In this document: piece after piece, positions 1,197 through 64,000 of the stretch
How the letters are laid out: every line of letters starts with the position of its first letter
Numbering within the stretch: position 1 is the first letter of the stretch
From: Candidatus Moraniibacteriota bacterium
Lineage (GTDB): Bacteria; Patescibacteriota; Minisyncoccia; Moranbacterales; GCA-2747515
DNA length: 64,000 nucleotides
NCBI GenBank assembly: GCA_942490825.1
Contig: CALNYG010000004.1
Location: 116,888 to 180,887, forward strand
Direction of reading: 5' to 3'
Position numbers and translations under genes: made by a program
The notes under the pieces: model-generated
Databases searched by the model: none
Told to the model about the DNA's origin: nothing
The model's input: the letters and a program-made list of their open reading frames with translations, nothing else

Positions 1197-1474
1197 ATGT
1201 CATTTCGACTAGGACATAGCGGAACGGAGAAATCTCAAAACTTTGTATTTTTCTAAAACTTTAAGATTTATTAATTTTATACTGCTCCAATCAAAATGAT
1301 ATTGAAGATTTTCCTAAAAAATATAATTTTCTTATTATTTTGAACGAAGTAAAATTTTTGTTAAAAAATTTAATATAATGAAGAATCTACTAAAGATAAT
1401 ACCCGACTTTTAAATTACTAAATTATCAGAAAAACTTACTGATATTATTCACTCCGCTACGTTCAGAATGACAG
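1197..1474. repeat. composite or decayed hairpin-repeat block in the nrdA-nrdB spacer
   Basis: The left end ATGTCATTTCGACTAGGACATAGCGGAACGGAGAAATCTCAAAAC (1197-1241) is about 87% identical to the reverse complement of 9125-9168. The right end CGCTACGTTCAGAATGACAG (to 1474) is the reverse complement of the CTGTCATTCTGAACG module seen at 40686 and 51127. Internal remnants are ATTTTGAACGAAGTAAAAT (1337-1355) and AATGAAGAATC (1378-1388). Confidence 0.75.
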
Positions 1475-7766: not shown

Positions 7767-7875
7767 TTTATGTTATTATTAAATCACCTGTCATTACAAA
7801 GAGAAACAAAGTGACGACATGCCAATCTCGTTAAGCCTTTCCAGAACTTTAAATAAATCTCTAATAAAAAAATTT

Positions 7876-8952
<1,077 letters not shown>

Positions 8953-9041
8953 CCCTACTTCATCTTTCTCTTTTGAGAATTATAAAAAGTCCTGCGGACG
9001 GCTTTTCAAAACTTATCAGACATCTCTATCGACTTTAATTA

Positions 9042-9168
9042 ATGTCATTTCTACCGGAATATTTTTAAACGTAGTTTTAAAATATACAGTGGAGAAATCT
9101 CAAAGCTTTAGTTTCAACTTAGAGTTTTGAGATTTCTCCATTCCGCTACGCTCCAGTCGAAATGACAT
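9042..9168. repeat. 127-bp hairpin element with perfect 10-bp terminal inverted repeats
   Basis: Termini are ATGTCATTTC (9042-9051) and GAAATGACAT (9159-9168). There is an internal 14-bp stem GGAGAAATCTCAAA / TTTGAGATTTCTCC (9091-9139). The right half matches 1197-1241 in reverse complement. Confidence 0.85.
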
Positions 9169-10433: not shown

Positions 10434-12146
10434 CTATTCACTAAAAACTATCTTTTCAATAAATTTTCTAGCATCTTCTAATTCTGAATCACTAGCCAAA
10501 TCTTTTGTTTCTAAAACTTCATTTACCCACTTTGGACCATGATTACCGATACTTTTTACAAAACGTTCTAATTCACCAAGTTCAACAATAAATAATCCAC
10601 TTTTTTCAAATATTTCTTGTAACTCATTAAATTTACTAGTTGGATCACCTGACGGAACAGAGCACTTGCCGTCATCTTTAGCAATTTGCCATGGTGATTT
10701 TACCTTAATGATTTTTCTTATCTCTTTGGCGTCTTTAACAGAAATTATATCATTTGATATTCCATCAATATAATCTTTAATATTTTTTTCTAAACAATCT
10801 TTTCTTAAATTATCTACTGACTTTGAATCTATACTATTTTTAATCAACTTCCAATTACTTTCAACACTAGACCATTCTATCTCCAATGACTCAACAATCC
10901 CCTTTAATGGATTTTGATTATTCAAAACATCAAAATCAACGATCACTGAAACTGGCACTCCTATCTTTTTTAAAGCATTAACTACCGTACTTACCCTATC
11001 TTTACCTCCACAATGAACAAATAATAGATCTGTAGTATAATCATCCCTCTCCTCACAAATAGAATCTAATATCGCTGAATAAAACTTACAATCAGAATCA
11101 CTTTCACAAACGATTACTTTTTTATGAAATAAACCACTTAAAATATTTGAATACTTTAAAATAGGATCTTCCCATACATCTTTAACACCTTCATTATCTA
11201 ATTCACAAATATTATTTACATTTCCTTCTCTATTAATTCTAATTATTTTAACATTAGAATCCTTCTCATCTAACAAACCCTTTAAAAAATCCTCACTGTG
11301 AGTTGAAATAAAAACTTGTTTATCCTTTGTTAAACTTTGAGAAAGCATTTTACCTAGTAATTTTGCTTGAGGTGGATGTAAAAAAGCTTCTGGCTCATCT
11401 ATTAAAAATACAGATTTATAAGAAATTATCATATTAAGTAAAATTCCTACAAAACTTTTCATACCGTCTCCTTGTTCATGTAAAAAAGGCAATTTATCCA
11501 ATTTTTCATTATATTCATTTGAAATTCTATCATTTTCTTTAGTATATTCAATTTTTTCTCCAACATGTAACGGTATCTGATTTCCAGCTCTATAATTTAA
11601 AATAAGACACTCACCAAAAGATTTTTTAAAATAATCATTAATTTCATCTTGCAAATTCTCATCTTTATATAAAAAGTGTATCGGATGTTGCGGTTGTTCT
11701 TTAAAACCAATACTATTAGTTGGACCAACCATACCAAGACGATTTTGAGTATCAATAAAAGAAATAAAAATATTACTTAGCTCTCTTATTCCTTCCGCAT
11801 AACCGTTATAGTAACTTCTTATATTATTTTCATGTAAACTAAACTGATAACCTTCATATGTCTTAAAAGAATCTGCTCCGTATTTTTCTTCTGAAAATGA
11901 TTTTAAAAAATTAATAAAATTGTCATCGTTTCCTCTTTTGGAAATATTAATATTTTTAACTACTATTCCTGCATTTTCTGTGCTCGGATTATTTATAATT
12001 TTTTCTCTGATATTTTTTAAAACAACACTTTTACCTGAATTATTAGGACCAACAAAAACTACAGTACTATTCTCTTCAAGTATTATTTCATTACCATCAT
12101 TAAAAACTATTTTATCAACAAAAAAACTAAATTCATTATTTGACAT
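10434..12146 (-). CDS. OLD-family-like ATPase with a C-terminal Toprim/DUF4435-like nuclease domain
   Basis: Walker A FVGPNNSGKS, signature-like QGDGMKSF, Walker B VFLIDEPEAFLHP and H-loop ISTHSEDF. The C-terminal part has VIVCESDSDCKFY (Toprim Glu), HCGGKD and VIVDFDVL (DxD). Confidence 0.65.
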   Translation of the reverse strand: MSNNEFSFFVDKIVFNDGNEIILEENSTVVFVGPNNSGKSVVLKNIREKIINNPSTENAGIVVKNINISKRGNDDNFINFLKSFSEEKYGADSFKTYEGYQFSLHENNIRSYYNGYAEGIRELSNIFISFIDTQNRLGMVGPTNSIGFKEQPQHPIHFLYKDENLQDEINDYFKKSFGECLILNYRAGNQIPLHVGEKIEYTKENDRISNEYNEKLDKLPFLHEQGDGMKSFVGILLNMIISYKSVFLIDEPEAFLHPPQAKLLGKMLSQSLTKDKQVFISTHSEDFLKGLLDEKDSNVKIIRINREGNVNNICELDNEGVKDVWEDPILKYSNILSGLFHKKVIVCESDSDCKFYSAILDSICEERDDYTTDLLFVHCGGKDRVSTVVNALKKIGVPVSVIVDFDVLNNQNPLKGIVESLEIEWSSVESNWKLIKNSIDSKSVDNLRKDCLEKNIKDYIDGISNDIISVKDAKEIRKIIKVKSPWQIAKDDGKCSVPSGDPTSKFNELQEIFEKSGLFIVELGELERFVKSIGNHGPKWVNEVLETKDLASDSELEDARKFIEKIVFSE

Positions 12147-13439: not shown

Positions 13440-14093
13440 TCAAATACAAGGCATTTTTTCAATAAAATCTTTATAATCTTTTAGATCATAATCAAACTGC
13501 TCTAAAATAACATCTTTATCACACAACATTCCATTTCTTTTTCCAAGATAATCTAAAAGACTAGAATATTTCCAATTTTTATTTTTGCCTCCATGAATGA
13601 AATGATTTTGATTTACATAAGCAGATAGATACAAAAGATATTCATTTGAATCAATGTGAATTGACTTGAATTTTCCTTGAAAAAGTGAGCCTGAACGTTT
13701 GTGTTTTTTGTTAAAATACATCGTGTAAGAAGTTCCTAATTTCTGCATAAATCTTTCTACACCCTTATCTGCGTTTTGTTTCAAAATAAAATGATAATGA
13801 TTTGGATTTAAACAATATGCAACAAATTCAACAAGTTTATTCCTACTCTTAAGTTGTTCTTTGAAATTATTTTCAAACACTCCAAGGTTCGACCTTCGGG
13901 GATCCGAAGGTCGAACCTTTTCACGTTGATAATCTCTATAAAGTTGCATCAATCCATTGTTTTCATCATTCAACAAATTCATATTCAAGATAAATCTTTT
14001 GTAATCATCTTCATCCATAAAAACGTCCCTTTTATCAACACCTCGATTATATATATGATAGAATTCTCCATTTACAAATTCTGTTTTTCTCAT
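13440..14093 (-). CDS. REP-associated tyrosine transposase-like protein (RAYT / IS200-like Y1 HUH family)
   Basis: FYHIYNRG, the HUH motif in AYCLNPNHYHFIL, YTMYFNKKHKRSGSLFQGKFKS, catalytic-Tyr region YLLYLSAYVNQN, and WKYSS. I prefer the ATG at 14093; the ORF-track start at 14117 is a TTG. The stop codon is TGA. Confidence 0.85.
   Translation of the reverse strand: MRKTEFVNGEFYHIYNRGVDKRDVFMDEDDYKRFILNMNLLNDENNGLMQLYRDYQREKVRPSDPRRSNLGVFENNFKEQLKSRNKLVEFVAYCLNPNHYHFILKQNADKGVERFMQKLGTSYTMYFNKKHKRSGSLFQGKFKSIHIDSNEYLLYLSAYVNQNHFIHGGKNKNWKYSSLLDYLGKRNGMLCDKDVILEQFDYDLKDYKDFIEKMPCI
13884..13919. repeat. perfect 36-nt palindrome (16-bp arms, 4-nt loop) inside the RAYT-like ORF
   Basis: AAGGTTCGACCTTCGG-GGAT-CCGAAGGTCGAACCTT. 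It is a GC-rich island in an AT-rich gene and is translated in frame as KVRPSDPRRSNL. Confidence 0.95.
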
Positions 14094-14108
14094 AAAAAAA
14101 TTTAAATC

Positions 14109-14144
14109 AAAACTCAATCTTCAAAAACCCAAAGATTGAGTTTT
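14109..14144 (-). terminator. terminator-like hairpin after leuS
   Basis: AAAACTCAATCTT / AAGATTGAGTTTT 12-13 bp stem between the leuS stop (14160) and the RAYT ATG (14093). Confidence 0.5.
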
Positions 14145-14159
14145 AAAATAACTAAACCC

Positions 14160-27917: not shown

Positions 27918-28817
27918 TTAATTATTCTCTTTTAAGTCATTAAAATGACTTCTAATCTGCTCTCCAAAATTATCACTATGATTATCCACCTGACTATTAT
28001 CAATTACATTTTTCTTTTTAAACTCTTCAAAAGTTAAATTATTTTTAGGAAAAACGCCAATTTCATAAAGAACTTCATCAAAAAAACCTGGCAAAATCGT
28101 TTTGTAAGTAATAGGAAATTCTAAAATAGAGATTTCTTCAACTCTTCGAGTAATCGTATTAATACAACTATTAAATAATGTATTATAAAAAGTTGGATTA
28201 TCATAAACATTATTAATATCTTCTGCCAACAATTTAAAAAGTTCTTGGGATTTCTCTGGTGTAGCAATAGTTGGATATAAGTAGACCCGCTCACCCCTGC
28301 CATCTTCTCGAACATTTGTTCTAACGCCAATTAAATCTTCCTCCGTCGCCACCACATAAATAATTTCAAATTTTCTAAACAAACCCTTAATTGGCTCGAA
28401 TTCTTCAAAATCTTCTCTTCGAGTTTCCACTGAAATTGCTATGTTTTCATTGTCTTCAAATCGAAAAGTTAAAAAAATATGTGCCATCCCTTCAAAATCA
28501 GAAAAATGTGAAATAACCACATCAACACCATCTAGCTTATTTAAATCAAAAGTTTTTTCAATATAATTTACTTCAGTCCCCTCTTTTTGCCAATCGAAAT
28601 CTCGCAAATTTTTCACTGTAATTAAATTATCATCAATTTCTATCTTTGGTAATTTTTCTTGTCCTAACTCCCAGTCTCGGTCATGACTTGGTTTTTTTGA
28701 TAAAACTACTGCAGAAAAAATAATTAAAACCAACAAAATAACATACACAAAAATTCTTTTCTTTGTCATATCTTGCACCTTCTCTTTAAAATTTTGAACT
28801 AACTTTTGCATATTCAT
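27918..28817 (-). CDS. DUF4105 (Lnb N-terminal periplasmic domain-like) protein
   Basis: N-terminal TM helix, then SHDRDWELGQ, ISVETRRE, FEIIYVVATEEDLIGVRTN and YNTLFNSCINTI, as I recall the family pattern. Confidence 0.55.
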   Translation of the reverse strand: MNMQKLVQNFKEKVQDMTKKRIFVYVILLVLIIFSAVVLSKKPSHDRDWELGQEKLPKIEIDDNLITVKNLRDFDWQKEGTEVNYIEKTFDLNKLDGVDVVISHFSDFEGMAHIFLTFRFEDNENIAISVETRREDFEEFEPIKGLFRKFEIIYVVATEEDLIGVRTNVREDGRGERVYLYPTIATPEKSQELFKLLAEDINNVYDNPTFYNTLFNSCINTITRRVEEISILEFPITYKTILPGFFDEVLYEIGVFPKNNLTFEEFKKKNVIDNSQVDNHSDNFGEQIRSHFNDLKENN

Positions 28818-28867
28818 TTTAATTAATTTTAAAAACTTAAAAATATATTTAAATTAAGATTATTCTT

Positions 28868-28903: not shown

Positions 28904-28982
28904 ATGTCATGCTGGAAGATATAATTTGTCCTCGACATTAAAAATATACGGGGTTACAAATTAATCTATTCAGTGTCTACAC
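28904..28982. repeat. degenerate copy of the ATGTCATT hairpin module
   Basis: ATGTCATGCTGGAAGATATAATTTGT...ACAAATTAATCTATTCAGTGTCTACAC aligns to the module at 33077-33164, but the CCGG arms are mutated. Confidence 0.6.
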
Positions 28983-33076: not shown

Positions 33077-33164
33077 ATGTCATTCCGGAAAATATATTTT
33101 CTTTTGTAGAAACGTCGATTTATCGCGTTTTATAGATAGAAAATAATTTATCCGGAATCTACAC
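33077..33164. repeat. ATGTCATT hairpin module (single)
   Basis: ATGTCATTCCGGAAAATATATTTTCT-[loop]-AGAAAATAATTTATCCGGAATCTACAC. Confidence 0.85.
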
Positions 33165-34840: not shown

Positions 34841-35179
34841 TTATTCCAAAAAGAAATCTACCAACCAAACTGTCGCACTAACAAAAAGTGATCCCAAAAG
34901 AGCAGCTATAAATCCATCTATTGTAACTCCATCTAAGAATCCTAACATCCAAAAAATCAAAGCATTAATTACAAAAGTAAACAAACCTAAAGTTAAAATA
35001 GTAATTGGAAAAGAAAAAAACGAAATAACAGGTTTAATGATCAAACTTAAAATTCCCAATAAAATCGCTGCAATTACCGCCGTTGGAAAAAAACTATCCA
35101 CACTAACACCTACACCATCAATTGAACTCAAGAGTAAAAAAACTCCAGCAACCGCAAACATTTTTATGATCAATTTCAT
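34841..35179 (-). CDS. Phage_holin_4_2 / YvlD-like small membrane protein
   Basis: 112 aa with 4 helices. The pattern ITILTLGLFTFVINALIFWMLGFL..DGF..ALLGSL is typical of that family as I recall it. Confidence 0.5.
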   Translation of the reverse strand: MKLIIKMFAVAGVFLLLSSIDGVGVSVDSFFPTAVIAAILLGILSLIIKPVISFFSFPITILTLGLFTFVINALIFWMLGFLDGVTIDGFIAALLGSLFVSATVWLVDFFLE

Positions 35180-35234: not shown

Positions 35235-35405
35235 ATGTCATTCCGGAAAATATATTTTCTTTTCGAACGAAGTGAGAAATTAGAAAATAATTTATCCGGA
35301 ATCTATACCTAAAATTTTTTATATCTTAAAGTGTAGATTCCGGATAAACTAATTTGTATTCAATCGCTATCGCTCTTGAACAAATTATGTCTTCCGGAAT
35401 GACAT
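35235..35405. repeat. 171-bp double-hairpin element with ATGTCATT / AATGACAT termini
   Basis: Left hairpin at 35235-35307 (ATTCCGGAAAATATATTTTCT...AGAAAATAATTTATCCGGAAT). Right hairpin at 35331-35405 (ATTCCGGATAAACTAATTTGT...ACAAATTATGTCTTCCGGAAT). The outer termini are inverted repeats. Confidence 0.9.
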
Positions 35406-35438: not shown

Positions 35439-36863
35439 CTAATTATTCATCCGATTCCTCAACAACGAAATCGGCGTCTTCAATATAATTATAACATCCA
35501 AATACAAAGACCAGTTTTCAATATAATAAACATCCAACCGATATTCATCCTCAAAATCCAAATCACTTCTCCCCGAAATCTGCGCCATACCAGTAATTCC
35601 AGGAGTAACCGTCAAAAGACGACGATGATATTCACGATATTTATTCACCTCCCTTTCCTGATGTGGTCGTGGCCCCACTAAACTCATATCACCTTTTAAA
35701 ACATTAAAAAACTGTGGAAATTCATCAATTGAAAACTTTTCTAAAATTTTACCAATCCGAGTTCGACGTGGATCATTAACAATCTTATAAATCGGACCCA
35801 CTCTTTGAGAACTGTTTTTGATCAATTCTTGTTCATATTTAATAGCATTTTCATAATTAGGATTTCTCTTGGTTGTGCACCACTTCCACTTAAAATAACG
35901 AAATTTATAAACAAAAATCTCTTCTCCATTTGCACCCACTCGAGCATTTTTAAAAATAATCGGACCTTCTGGATCCTCCAATTTAATAATGATAACAACT
36001 ATTAACATTATTGGACTCGTAAGAATAATCAAAGCAGTTGATCCAATAACATCAAAAATTCTTTTTGCAATTTTACCCCAACCATCTAACGGTGTATGAT
36101 TAATTTCAATAATAGGTTCGCCATTGAAAATATTCACATTAAATTGTGTTGCTTGCCGTAAAGATGGAATAAACTTATAGGTAATATTATTGATCTGACA
36201 GTAATCATAAAGTTTCAAAAGTAAATCATCTGGTACTGAAGACTCATGTACAATAATCTCGTCAATTCCGAATTTTTTCTTAGATTCTTTAATCTCTCGA
36301 ATATCTACATGATCCATAAAACCAACAACTCGATATCCCAATTGTGGCTTACTGATAATAGTTTCACGAACATTTTTTACTTTATTACCTAATCCAATAA
36401 CCAAAACTCGATGATAGCCAATACCTTTCAAAACTAAAAGTTTTCGCTGAATTATTTGCAAAAATAAACGCCCACACATCACAAAAGAAATTATCAACAT
36501 CCAAGCCATCACAATAATAAAACGAGAAGAAAACCACTCTCGTTGTAAAAAGAATCCTACCATTACTAAAACCAGAACTACAGTTGTCGCTTTAAAAACT
36601 AAATAACCCTCTTTAAAAAATTTACGAGTAGATCTAATATTATACAAGCCTTCAAAAGCATAGACCACCAAAAATAAAGGTGCAATCATGTATACAATAT
36701 ACATGAATTGCTCAAAAGAAAAATTGTAAAGTCCTTCCTTTTGAATTAAACTCTGGACTTGAGAAATATGCCTCAATTGATAAGCTAAAGCCGAACCCAA
36801 TAAAACCATCGATAAATCAACAAAAACCTGAATAATACTAAAAGTAAGTTCTGACTTTTTCAT
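35439..36863 (-). CDS. polyprenyl-phosphate sugar phosphotransferase (WbaP/bacterial sugar transferase family)
   Basis: KRIFDVIGSTALIILTSP, DEFPQFFNVLKGDMSLVGPRP and N-terminal TM helices. I prefer the ATG at 36863. Confidence 0.85.
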   Translation of the reverse strand: MKKSELTFSIIQVFVDLSMVLLGSALAYQLRHISQVQSLIQKEGLYNFSFEQFMYIVYMIAPLFLVVYAFEGLYNIRSTRKFFKEGYLVFKATTVVLVLVMVGFFLQREWFSSRFIIVMAWMLIISFVMCGRLFLQIIQRKLLVLKGIGYHRVLVIGLGNKVKNVRETIISKPQLGYRVVGFMDHVDIREIKESKKKFGIDEIIVHESSVPDDLLLKLYDYCQINNITYKFIPSLRQATQFNVNIFNGEPIIEINHTPLDGWGKIAKRIFDVIGSTALIILTSPIMLIVVIIIKLEDPEGPIIFKNARVGANGEEIFVYKFRYFKWKWCTTKRNPNYENAIKYEQELIKNSSQRVGPIYKIVNDPRRTRIGKILEKFSIDEFPQFFNVLKGDMSLVGPRPHQEREVNKYREYHRRLLTVTPGITGMAQISGRSDLDFEDEYRLDVYYIENWSLYLDVIIILKTPISLLRNRMNN

Positions 36864-36939
36864 AAAAAACTTTAACAAAATTATTTTTCCTATCTCTAAA
36901 ATACTAAAAATATATACCCCTCTAAATTTCACAGGCCAT

Positions 36940-37279
36940 CAAAAGATAATCTATAAGCTGGATTCTGTCGAGAATAGTGATTTACCTTGTTTATATGTTG
37001 CCATATAAATCCTCGCGACTCACCCCACACCCACAATTTAAATATAAATTATGGGTGTGGGGTACGGTCTTGCACTTAAGTAAGGATTTAGCCGTTTCAC
37101 CTTCCATGTTTCCACAGAAGCTTATCCCGAAGGATAGATCAGAGCTTTCGCGCCAATCCGTCTCTGCTCGCACCTCATGGGTCACCCCAGACGGGAGTTA
37201 CCCGCTACCTCGCTGTCTTCGTAAAAAAAAGACAAGTGTCCAGACTTTCCTCTCCGTAGAGCCACTATTTAATCATCTT
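36940..37279 (-). ncRNA. rnpB: RNase P RNA, bacterial type A
   Basis: The minus strand carries GGAGAGGAAAGTCTGGACAC (CR-I), GGAAGGTGAAACGGC and GACAGAATCCAGCTTAT (CR-V). P1 pairs AGAUGAUU with GAUUAUCU. The region is a local GC-rich island, and the ends are approximate. Confidence 0.85.
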
Positions 37280-37536
37280 TTAATGGACAATATTATTTAG
37301 AGTATTATTTTTAACTGTGGTTATTATACAATAAATTTAACGAAAAATAAAGGAAAAGTTGATTGACTTTTTAATCTCTCTATTGAGTTGAATACAATAT
37401 TTTAAAAGTTCAGATTTAATTTTAAAATTGAAAAAAAATATAAATCATTTAATTTATAAAAAATTTTCTATAAAATTTCTAGTCTACCAACTCTTTATTC
37501 TTATTAATGTTGCTGAAAAGCTGGTATTTAAAAAGT

Positions 37537-40617: not shown

Positions 40618-40780
40618 AAAGTGCTCGCCGCACGGGCTTTTCTGAACAAGGGGTCATGACCCCTTGTTCAGATTCTAAAAATTTTCTGTCATTCTGAACG
40701 GATTTATTTTTTTCAGAAAAAATATAGTAGTGAAGTCTGCCTATCGGCAGATAGGAATCCCCCACAGAGAATCACAAAAC
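40618..40780 (+). repeat. composite repeat with GC-box copy 5, a 32-nt perfect palindrome, a GTCATTCTGAACG hairpin module and a nested 20-nt mini-palindrome
   Basis: GC-box at 40618-40641. The palindrome TCTGAACAAGGGGTCA|TGACCCCTTGTTCAGA is at 40641-40672. CTGTCATTCTGAACG...GTGAAG[TCTGCCTATCGGCAGATAGG]AATCCCCC has the bracketed insert at 40736-40755. The whole block is colinear with 51077-51201. Confidence 0.9.
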
Positions 40781-51076: not shown

Positions 51077-51201
51077 AAAGTGCTCGCCGCACGGGCTTTT
51101 TAGATTTTATTTTTTCTAAAAGTTTTCTGTCATTCTGAACGCATTTATTTTTTATTTAAAAAATAAAGGAGTGAAGAATCCCCCAAAGAAAATCATAAAA
51201 C
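51077..51201 (+). repeat. composite repeat with GC-box copy 6 and a GTCATTCTGAACG hairpin module
   Basis: AAAGTGCTCGCCGCACGGGCTTTTT ... CTGTCATTCTGAACG ... GAGTGAAGAATCCCCCAAAGAAAATCATAAAAC. It is colinear with 40618-40780 but lacks both palindromic inserts. It sits between CIRCE and the dnaJ start. Confidence 0.9.
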
Positions 51202-54667: not shown

Positions 54668-55102
54668 TTAAAATCCAAAATCACTATAAAAGCTATCTTT
54701 ACGTATATTTTCAAGAGCCTGTTTAATAAAAGGAATTGTATTTTCTGGCAAGTCATCCAAATCAAACCAACTAACATCATCACACTTATTAGACTCTGCA
54801 ACTTTCGGTTCGCCTTTCCATTTTTTTGCCATAAAAAATACATCGATTCTATTACCATTTTGTTGTCTATGTAAAACATGTACTGCATCAAGACTATCTG
54901 AACATAAATCAATATCAACCTCTTCTTTAGCTTCCCTAATCATTGCATCTTTGTACGCCTCACCATCATCAACATGACCGCCGACCAAACTATAATTTCC
55001 ATCTTCATAACCAGTATTGTATCTTCGCAATAAAAGAATTTTATTATCTTTAACTAAGACAAGATAAATTCCTGGAGTTATTTTTAATCTCTCTTTAGAC
55101 AT
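54668..55102 (-). CDS. Nudix hydrolase (paralog A1)
   Basis: Canonical Nudix box GGHVDDGEAYKDAMIREAKEEVDI. About 85% aa identity to the ORF at 61372-61806. Confidence 0.88.
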   Translation of the reverse strand: MSKERLKITPGIYLVLVKDNKILLLRRYNTGYEDGNYSLVGGHVDDGEAYKDAMIREAKEEVDIDLCSDSLDAVHVLHRQQNGNRIDVFFMAKKWKGEPKVAESNKCDDVSWFDLDDLPENTIPFIKQALENIRKDSFYSDFGF

Positions 55103-57374: not shown

Positions 57375-57593
57375 ATATCATTCCGGAAAATATATTTTCT
57401 CCTTCAGAGCGTAGCGATGAAATAGAAAATAATTTATCCGGAATCTAGAAAACTTTAAGATTATAAATAAACTTTAATTTTTTATTTTTCTCTTGTAATT
57501 TCTAAATACCGGATAGACGAACCTGTCTGCCGAACAGGCAGGTTTAAATCAATCGCTACGCTCTTGAATAAATTCTGTCTTCCGGCATGACAT
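57375..57593. repeat. 219-bp double-hairpin element with ATATCATT / CATGACAT termini and a nested mini-palindrome
   Basis: Same architecture as 35235-35405. The right hairpin additionally contains ACCTGTCTGCCGAACAGGCAGGT (57521-57543), which is absent from the 35331-35405 copy. Confidence 0.9.
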
Positions 57594-60885: not shown

Positions 60886-61335
60886 TTAATTCCAACCAAA
60901 TTCACTGTAAAAATTATCATTCTTAATATTTTCAAGAACCTGAAGAACCTCTGGAGCAATATTTTCTGGTAAACTATTCAAGTCAAACCATGATAAATCA
61001 TCACATTTCTCTGGTTCCATGTTTTTAATCTCACCATCCCATTTTTCACTCACAAAAAATGCACTGACTCTTTCATTATTCTGAGTGATCCCAAAATCTC
61101 CATGTATCACATGAGCTACTTTTAAATTTTTTGATTCTAAATCAACTCCTATCTCTTCCTTTGCTTCCCTAATTACACATCGAGTAAAACTTTCTCCGAC
61201 TTTAACGTGTCCAGAAGGTAATGAATATTTGCCATTACAATACTTTTTATTATAACGTCTCGACATTAATACTTTCTTATCTTTTAATAAAATCAGATAT
61301 GACGCTGGAATTATTTTATGTCTTTCTTTTTTCAT
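60886..61335 (-). CDS. Nudix hydrolase (paralog B)
   Basis: Nudix box SGHVKVGESFTRCVIREAKEEIGV. About 50% identity to paralogs A1 and A2. Confidence 0.85.
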   Translation of the reverse strand: MKKERHKIIPASYLILLKDKKVLMSRRYNKKYCNGKYSLPSGHVKVGESFTRCVIREAKEEIGVDLESKNLKVAHVIHGDFGITQNNERVSAFFVSEKWDGEIKNMEPEKCDDLSWFDLNSLPENIAPEVLQVLENIKNDNFYSEFGWN

Positions 61336-61371: not shown

Positions 61372-61806
61372 TTAAAATCCAAAATCACTATAAAAAACTT
61401 CTTTCTTTATATTTTTAAGAGCTTGTTTTATAAAAGGAATTGTATTATCAGGTAAATTATCCATATCAAACCAACTAACATCATCACATTTTTCAGATTC
61501 TGCAACTCTAGGCTCACCAGTCCAATCATTTGCCATAAAAAATACATCGATTCTATTACCACTTTGTTGCCTATGCAATACATGCACAGCATTTAAATCT
61601 GCTGAATTTATTTCTATATCAGCTTCCTCTTTAGCTTCTCTAATCATCGCATCCTTATAAGCTTCACCATCATCAACATGTCCACCTACTAAACTATAAT
61701 TACCATCTTCGTATCCAGTATTATATCTTCTAAGTAAGAGAATTTTATTATCTTTTATTAAAACAAGATAAATTCCCGGAATAATTTTTAATCTTTCTTT
61801 AGACAT
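61372..61806 (-). CDS. Nudix hydrolase (paralog A2)
   Basis: GGHVDDGEAYKDAMIREAKEEADI. About 85% aa identity to 54668-55102. Confidence 0.88.
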   Translation of the reverse strand: MSKERLKIIPGIYLVLIKDNKILLLRRYNTGYEDGNYSLVGGHVDDGEAYKDAMIREAKEEADIEINSADLNAVHVLHRQQSGNRIDVFFMANDWTGEPRVAESEKCDDVSWFDMDNLPDNTIPFIKQALKNIKKEVFYSDFGF

Positions 61807-63595: not shown

Positions 63596-63696
63596 AAAGT
63601 TTCGTATTTATATTTAATTTCCCTTGTATTATAGCATAATGTAAGGCTGTTGTAAAATTTTGAGCGTTTTTTCAACTTATTTCTAAACTAATTTTT

Positions 63697-63737
63697 GTGC
63701 CTGTCTGCCGATAGGCAGGCTCGCCGCACGAGTTTTT
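63697..63737 (+). repeat. GC-box repeat copy 7, interrupted by a 20-nt mini-palindrome
   Basis: GTGC[CTGTCTGCCGATAGGCAGGC]TCGCCGCACGAGTTTTT, with the bracketed insert at 63701-63720. Confidence 0.9.
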
Positions 63738-63850: not shown

Positions 63851-64000
63851 ATGTCATTCCGGAAGTTATAATTTTTTCAAGAGCGTAGCGATTGAATAAA
63901 AATTAATCTATCCGGAATCTCAACAAGCTTTCCTGACACTTAAAGAGATTCTGGAAAATAATTTTTCCGTTCTGCTACAAAATTATTTTCTGGAATAACA
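63851..64000. repeat. double-hairpin ATGTCATT element, right end cut by the window edge
   Basis: Left hairpin at 63851-63922 (ATGTCATTCCGGAAGTTATAATTTTT...AAAAATTAATCTATCCGGAAT). Right hairpin at 63946-64000 (ATTCTGGAAAATAATTTT...AAAATTATTTTCTGGAAT). Confidence 0.85.

Follow-up and report, generated by a model that had tools for sequence, protein, structure and literature searches.

A stretch of 64,000 nucleotides from the genome of a Candidatus Moraniibacteriota bacterium (assembly GCA_942490825.1, contig CALNYG010000004.1, positions 116,888 to 180,887; this whole 64-kb stretch is called the window below) raises the question of what kind of element the long hairpins in its intergenic spacers are and which enzyme might act on them. 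A first-pass annotation, made from the sequence alone, had likened these hairpins to miniature inverted-repeat transposable elements (MITEs) and to palindrome-associated transposable elements (PATEs). In this work, we found that they belong to the superfamily of repetitive extragenic palindromes (REPs) tagged with CGTC or TGTC, which is the same as the NTS/dRS3 repeats and the Ssn-related motifs (SRMs). They are a long-stemmed form, from the Candidate Phyla Radiation (CPR), of a known, bacteria-wide intergenic hairpin family, and their novelty lies in the loop and inner stem. By analogy with a characterized system, the likely partner of these TGTC hairpins is an Ssn-type GIY-YIG nuclease encoded outside the window, a reading to which we give a probability of roughly 0.7.

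Tagged hairpin units in the intergenic spacers

Eight hairpin units with the stem ATTCCGGA/TCCGGAAT are present in the window: six are paired in three inverted doublets, one stands alone, and one is decayed. Two subtypes are distinguished, namely, subtype 1 (...GGAAAATATATTTTTC...) and subtype 2 (...GGAAAGTATAATTTCT...). The doublets carry their tags on the outside (HH dimers).

35235-35405: HH doublet, tags outside; unit 35235-35307 (+) of subtype 1, spacer 35308-35332, unit 35333-35405 (−) of subtype 2; flanked by the WbaP-like gene (stop at 35439) and the holin-like gene (start at 35179)
57375-57593: HH doublet; unit 57375-57448 (+) of subtype 1, tag mutated to ATATC; spacer 57449-57504; unit 57505-57593 (−) of subtype 2, degenerate, stem ATGCCGGA/TCCGGTAT with a G.T pair, 3′ C lost; between ruvX and the GT2 gene
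63851-64000: HH doublet; unit 63851-63921 (+), subtype 2-like; spacer 63922-63935; unit 63936-64000 (−), decayed (TGTTATTCCAGAA...), tag TGTT, stem CCAG
33077-33164 (+): subtype 1, unpaired with another unit, apical part longer; in the spacer of the GT1/4 and Wzz-like genes
28904-28982 (+): decayed single unit (ATGTCATGCTGGAAG...TTCAGTGTCTACAC), with the family 3′ tail CTACACTTTAAG still present

The first-pass annotation had placed repeats at these positions, and all of them hold. It had also taken the third doublet to run beyond 64000; this doublet is in fact complete in the window, with a decayed right unit. The repeats are far above chance expectation: the sequence ATGTCATTCCGGAA, with two mismatches at most, occurs seven times against 0.38 expected, a count that none of 100 shuffles reached. 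Folding as DNA hairpins gives z scores of −4.1 to −5.8 for the four intact units, for the single unit, and for the degenerate one at 57505-57593, while the decayed units at 28904 and 63936-64000 have z scores of −2.7 and −3.4, respectively. The doublet at 35235-35405, folded as one long hairpin, reaches −9.4. In the unit at 63936-64000, the same CCGG-to-CCAG change is found on both arms of the basal stem; it is not compensatory and the pairing is broken, and one mutational process (e.g., at CpG) may have acted on both arms.

Every element sits in a spacer whose neighboring genes are co-directional, on the − strand (Phage_holin_4_2/Bac_transf, the latter being WbaP-like; GT2/RuvX; and Wzz/GT1-4), mostly just downstream of stop codons, and no open reading frame (ORF) is interrupted, which confirms the genomic context described in the first pass. 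The window has a G+C content of approximately 30% and a strongly negative GC skew. Spacers inside the three doublets measure 14, 25, and 56 nt. The arms of the single unit at 33077 are identical to those of the units at 35235 and 57375, and its apex is different; all three subtype 1 units of the window combine identical arms with unrelated apices. Such a pattern would be expected if the hairpin base is the part that counts.

Each unit begins at its 5′ end with an unpaired tag, (A)TGTC, and TGTC is present in all intact units. The basal stem that follows is 8 bp long (ATTCCGGA/TCCGGAAT) and is invariant in 24 aligned copies. Above it lies an AT-rich inner stem of 12-16 bp with a variable apex, often GAGCGWAGCGA, and the 45-63 nt between the basal arms form a second, covarying stem. 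The palindrome is followed directly by C and then by a tail TACRCTT, which reads CTA(C)ACTT in the window. The shared frame is (Y)GTC, a palindrome starting with AT, and then C-Y-R. The tetranucleotide GTAG, to which the first pass had drawn attention as a REP-like feature, does occur in some loops; however, it lies within the apical GAGCGTAGCGA motif, is incidental, and is not a terminal tag.

The 24 aligned copies, drawn from CPR genomes and the window, contain compensatory changes on both sides in 12 of 24 pairs, and 94.8% of the cells are paired. When the partners were slid, only 25-55% were paired, and the observed score was reached in none of 500 shuffles. Furthermore, the tagged strand is a better folder than its complement (109 vs. 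45 of 154 informative cases, p = 2e-6). The hairpin is under selection, and this selection is strand-asymmetric. The HH heterodimer geometry is equally regular: the doublets consist of two units of different subtype, and the tags lie outside in all 13 close inverted pairs inspected in the output of the scans described below and in all three doublets of the window.

Family membership and distribution

Di Nocera, De Gregorio & Rocco (2013; PMC3733652) described CGTC-tagged REPs in four families (CGTC-1 to CGTC-4), which include the Neisseria dRS3 and the Rickettsia RPE-4 and RPE-6 repeats. These REPs carry a CGTC or TGTC tag, stems of 8-9 bp starting with A-T and T-A, loops of 4-5 nt, and a CCA tail; they are mostly HH dimers, often heterodimers, and "apparently lack a dedicated transposase" (PMC3733652). 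The units of the window share with them the unpaired tag, the 8-9 bp stem beginning with A-T and T-A, the short 3′ tail, the predominance of HH dimers with spacers of 20-100 bp, the frequent pairing of unlike units, and the location between co-directional or convergent genes. The differences concern length and tail. In place of loops of 4-5 nt and units of 20-40 nt, the repeats described here have a covarying AT-rich stem-loop of 45-60 nt and units of approximately 70 nt, and the tail is C-T-A rather than CCA. Longer loops were noted in 2013 only for some Bradyrhizobium, Kosmotoga, and Marinitoga repeats, and the five phyla that the study lists do not include the host phylum of the present repeats, Patescibacteria/CPR (PMC3733652).

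A second point of reference is the Neisseria Transformation Sequence (NTS; CGTCATTCCCGCGMAVGCGGGAATCYRG), which contains the dRS3 palindrome (Chenal et al., 2025; PMC11893778). In that study, SsnA, a GIY-YIG nuclease of 94 aa (CDD cd10448), binds the NTS and cuts a few nucleotides upstream of it, acting on single-stranded DNA (ssDNA) and on that strand only. Its mutagenesis shows that the GTC before the palindrome governs cleavage, that the C after it is the most critical base for binding, and that cleavage is kept when the loop sequence is changed or the stem lengthened. The frame GTCATTCC...GGAATC-Y-R of the units is identical to the outer part of the NTS as given there (CGTCATTCCCGCG..CGCGGGAATCYRG), with GTC just 5′ and C just 3′ of the palindrome orienting the unit in both cases. 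The exceptions in the window are the units at 57505-57593 (3′ C lost), 57375-57448 (ATATC), and 63936-64000 (TGTT). A further difference is the pairing of two fixed subtypes around a conserved spacer, which the consulted sections of that paper do not describe. We call the units a variant because they carry the functional determinants of the family and fall outside its length definition.

To see how far this long-stemmed form extends, 185,579 species genomes were scanned for TCATTCCGGA-N40-70-TCCGGAATC, which returned at least 118 loci in many phyla, including several Moraniibacteriota. This pattern did not require a G before TCATT, and among the matches listed, 104 of 133 have G at position −1; the pattern used for metagenomes itself required the G. 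The inner segments of the 162 G-tagged matches listed from both scans fold (median z −3.6, 72% below −2), whereas those of the 29 untagged matches listed have a median z of −0.2, like random sequence. The base at position −2 is T or C in 150 of the 162 G-tagged matches listed, and the 3′ flank of the matches listed reads C/T, then A, then G, which reproduces the ATCYRG of the NTS (ATCYR).

A first metagenome scan with both arms of subtype 1 found nothing, and a second scan yielded 46 loci. Several of these are CPR contigs in which two hairpin subtypes closely resemble subtypes 1 and 2 of the window. The two subtypes are paired as HH doublets in L119, L122, L140, and L148, with a conserved spacer of approximately 55 nt in that lineage. 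Near-identical copies are found at different loci of one metagenome (L122, L129, and L130), a similarity that indicates recent spread or homogenization. With regard to a phage origin, the pattern is almost absent from viral contigs (four matches in 2.9 million scanned). The WbaP/RNase P region of the window has 68% DNA identity to the complete genome of Candidatus Moraniibacteriota MKparc2 (CP175956.1).

A GIY-YIG nuclease as candidate partner, and the alternatives

The loci recovered from relatives place a GIY-YIG gene in the neighborhood of the hairpins. Among 164 pattern-derived loci, five (L009, L022, L028, L093, and L148) have a GIY-YIG ORF 8-120 nt from a hairpin, and the number of such adjacencies expected by chance is well under one. 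The order in L148 is metG, a GIY-YIG gene of 94 aa, and a subtype 2/subtype 1 doublet; the same order is found in L170, which comes from a single-cell genome of Patescibacteria and encodes a protein with 82% identity. In the complete MKparc2 genome (L165), GTCATCCTGAAC..TTCAGGATC stands on either side of the GIY-YIG homolog P0059 in HH orientation, and GTCATCCTGAAC hairpins in short and long forms lie on both sides of the GIY-YIG gene in L171-L174. A gene beside or between hairpins mirrors the "NTS-ssnA-NTS" layout of PMC11893778. The GIY-YIG neighborhood is shown for the nearest relatives, and the 174 loci around the hairpins contain no Y1-like ORF.

The L148 protein consists of a single GIY-YIG domain with a Pfam GIY-YIG match. 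Its Y7, Y18, and E65 correspond to the catalytic residues Y6, Y17, and E64 that were mutated in SsnA; the likeness is drawn from residue spacing, the shared length of 94 aa, and the Pfam match. We found 2275 homologs at E ≤ 1e-10, and the named ones among the 120 listed are mostly from Moranbacteria/Moraniibacteriota. A PDB sequence search with the GIY-YIG protein gave spurious WD40 matches only.

The gene-flanking hairpins in L165 and L171-L174 are of another stem class (GTCATCCTGA...TCAGGATC), with short forms (loop of 4-6 nt) and long forms (approximately 65-80 nt) at the same locus. The MKparc2 genome also has ATTCCGGA units (L039), which suggests that a genome may contain several stem classes and possibly several nuclease paralogs.

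In the mechanism that we propose, the tagged strand would fold once it becomes single-stranded during replication, repair, or DNA uptake, and a small single-domain Ssn-type GIY-YIG endonuclease would bind the basal stem (ATTCC/GGAAT) together with the flanking GTC and C. The enzyme would then nick the ssDNA a few nucleotides 5′ of the tag. Such nicking may modulate recombination, integration, or DNA uptake near the flanked genes, which here form a cluster for surface polysaccharides, and Ssn may also drive the spread of the doublets. In Neisseria, the NTS has this effect near genes for surface antigens.

Several observations weigh against this reading. No GIY-YIG gene, ORF, or remnant was found within the window, and we infer that the source genome encodes a cognate Ssn elsewhere; metG is not in the window either. 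The published SRM pattern, HGTCWYN(0-2)YYVSBRHN(0-5)WNVSBRGN(0-2)RNCYNB, has no match in the window. Its left half and right end match the units, and its loop-length limit and right-arm pattern fail; the units are missed because the loop is limited to 0-5 nt. Ssn enzymes are sequence-specific, and action on the ATTCCGGA stem is a prediction. With regard to mobility, near-identical assemblies (L165-169, L171-174, and L175-178) contain no hairpin-sized indels and no presence/absence polymorphism. Two candidates were discarded along the way. A weak tblastn match at 28804-28851 (E = 0.3) was set aside as noise. The WbaP ortholog in L139 lacks a downstream hairpin and was considered as an empty site, but its downstream gene differs as well and the comparison is not clean. 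That the doublets with a conserved spacer in relatives are REPIN-like replicating units, copied in dependence on the Ssn GIY-YIG nuclease, seems rather doubtful and is put forward only tentatively.

A different enzyme would be involved if the doublets were REPINs or bacterial interspersed mosaic elements (BIMEs) mobilized by a RAYT-type Y1 (HUH) transposase encoded at 13440-14117. The first-pass annotation had seen no IS-encoded DDE transposase in the window, and this stands; a RAYT-like Y1_Tnp ORF, however, is present at 13440-14117 (−), with a Pfam E-value of 1.4e-8 and an HUH-like NHYHF motif. Homologs of this protein are abundant in Moranbacteria/Moraniibacteriota, and it has a weak match to REP_Tyr_transpos (NCBIfam) that is below threshold (28 bits against a cut-off of 80). 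The inverted-doublet architecture is also REPIN-like, and the structural analogy with REP doublets drawn in the first pass is sound, as REP-type hairpins arranged as inverted doublets are what the window contains. REPINs and BIMEs with RAYT transposases are treated in Bertels & Rainey 2011, Nunvar 2010, and Ton-Hoang 2012. The common features are two inverted REP hairpins that can also fold as one long hairpin, an intergenic location in many copies, and a partner gene that is present once and has its own repeats on its flanks. The systems differ in that a GTAG tag goes with an HUH-Y1 gene there and TGTC goes with GIY-YIG here.

The tag of the window units is TGTC, not GTAG or GGAG, and the Y1 gene is separated from its neighbors leuS and mreB by only 42 and 24 nt, with its flanks free of TGTC hairpins. 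The hairpin upstream of it (AAACTCAATCTT...AAGATTGAGTTT) is unrelated to the TGTC units and unique in the window, and a related private hairpin flanks both sides of the Y1 homolog in L175. Around approximately 190 hairpins (174 loci, 1.2 Mb, within approximately 4 kb of the hairpins), we found no Y1-like ORF, as opposed to the five adjacent GIY-YIG ORFs among the pattern-derived loci. Di Nocera et al. likewise found no RAYT flanked by CGTC units (PMC3733652). The dependence on Y1 and the PATE label, both from the first pass, are not borne out by the TGTC frame, the lack of a Y1 ORF near these hairpins, and the GIY-YIG gene of 94 aa as the neighbor in relatives, and mobilization by the RAYT-like protein is very unlikely. 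As a side observation, this protein (IS200-like, 217-225 aa) is preceded by a private hairpin with a 12-bp stem at 14108-14145, and L179, from a further Moraniibacteriota genome, has leuS and the Y1 gene in the same conserved order. The Y1 gene and its hairpin appear to be a separate, vertically inherited system.

The hairpins could also act mainly as RNA (terminators, 3′ stabilizers, or processing sites) that is transcribed with the upstream genes and has no dedicated partner at the DNA level. Their intergenic location mostly just past the stops of co-directional genes is compatible with this, as are the strong predicted structures with covariation, and secondary roles of that kind are known for REPs in other bacteria. 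However, no T-run follows the hairpins, a terminator scan found none at the elements, and Rfam at gathering and permissive thresholds has no family that matches them (only RNase P and chance microRNA matches were obtained). The asymmetric flanks (GTC and C-Y-R) have no preferred orientation relative to genes, with 22 sense and 30 antisense cases in 52 co-directional contexts, yet the tagged strand folds better; the single units in the window have the tagged strand antisense to the genes. Single-unit orientation relative to GC skew is also unbiased (33 vs. 27). The link of the hairpins to a DNA nuclease gene is a further argument against RNA as their main level of action. We consider this explanation unlikely, and any RNA role is at most secondary because there are no terminators at the elements and no orientation preference. 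Even less credible are classical MITEs with terminal inverted repeats (TIRs), mobilized in trans by the DDE transposase of an insertion sequence (IS) elsewhere in the genome. The inverted ends ATGTCATTCCGGAA/TTCCGGAATGACAT and the small, AT-rich, intergenic nature of the elements fit such MITEs. Nevertheless, half-elements in the form of single hairpins are as common as doublets, and what looks like a TIR is the base of a hairpin whose motif occurs bacteria-wide and does not come from an IS. Neither the window nor the related copies display a consistent target-site duplication, and a DDE transposase is lacking both in the window and beside the copies in the loci. The MITE label given in the first pass is therefore not supported, and this possibility is extremely remote.

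Other repeats in the spacers and implications of the family

Further intergenic units of the window have the frame (Y)GTCATT ... AATC(Y) with other stems and represent sister subfamilies.

1197-1476: nrdB/nrdA spacer; tagged units at 1197-1242 (+) and 1435-1476 (−), from sister subfamilies, both facing outward, with a degenerate unit between them
7788-7832 (+): degenerate tagged unit (CTGTCATTACAAAG...GCCAATCTC); sequence resemblance only, fold not significant
9041-9168: HH doublet of a sister subfamily (GTCATTTCGAC/GTCATTTCTAC ... GAGAAATC); 9041-9103 (+) in an extended form, 9120-9168 (−) in a short form with central GAGCGTAGCG
40686-40766 (+): single unit, subfamily CTGTCATTCTGAAC...GAATC; contains an inserted GC palindrome (40734-40753)
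51127-51180 (+): single unit, same subfamily as at 40686 (CTGTCATTCTGAAC ... GTGAAGAATC), z −4.2

The central GAGCGTAGCG of several sister units is the apex motif of the long units. A unit of this wider tagged family is found in approximately every second long intergenic spacer of the window. A generic finder for GTCAT, a hairpin, and C gave 10 matches in the window (shuffle mean 5.35, maximum 12), which is no better than shuffles in such AT-rich DNA.

Two other repeats share these spacers. A GC-rich 17-mer, GTGCTCGCCGCACGGGC, is present in six full copies (17130, 25067, 28868, 33209, 40621, and 51080) and one partial copy (63717), with none expected. All are intergenic and on the + strand, and the distance to a TGTC unit is often 15-130 nt; in four cases, a − strand gene starts 34-96 nt downstream of the copy. 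This 17-mer is absent from the loci of relatives and might serve as an operator or promoter element or form a small hairpin. The second repeat is a small GC palindrome, CCTGYCTGCC-N4-GGCAGRCAGG, found at 57522-57542, 40734-40753, and 63696-63721 and nested within TGTC units. It stands in for part of the inner stem in the unit at 57505-57593, is also found beside the 17-mer, and occurs at the hairpin apices of L124, L127, L131, L143, L145, L157, L160, and L162. It looks like a third, independently inserting hairpin repeat, and the spacers would thus be mosaics similar to BIMEs and to Neisseria intergenic mosaic elements (NIMEs).

For the genes of the window, the Pfam scan covered 60 of the approximately 66 ORFs in the gene list, the rest being short. 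A bacterial RNase P RNA of class A (114 bits) is located at 36938-37280 (−), directly upstream of the WbaP-like gene, and the two listed ORFs that overlap it, at 36977-37300 (+) and 36991-37185 (−), are spurious. Three NUDIX paralogs on the − strand (54668-55102, 60886-61335, and 61372-61806), two of them in tandem, have approximately 80% DNA identity and explain the direct repeats D1, D8, and D9. The gene at 10434-12146 (−), beside that for alanine racemase, encodes an AAA_21/OLD-like TOPRIM protein; this product is an OLD-family nuclease that is possibly related to defense.

For annotation, the tagged units account for a large part of the long spacers between genes in this genome region, and they should not be read as ORFs, terminators, or MITEs. 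An anonymous repeat of CPR genomes is hereby tied to a recently characterized nuclease system. The published motif census misses the long-stemmed forms, which we found in many phyla; if the proposed link to Ssn is true, Ssn/SRM systems would be far more widespread than counted and would extend to streamlined CPR genomes, with long stems invisible to the SRM pattern. If the doublets also replicate through the nuclease, they would represent the first case of a GIY-YIG enzyme driving a non-autonomous element. The small CPR genomes with the metG, ssn, and doublet layout offer a compact system for asking whether Ssn only restricts ssDNA or also spreads the hairpins, which is the same question that was left open in 2013 for the CGTC REPs that "lack a dedicated transposase."

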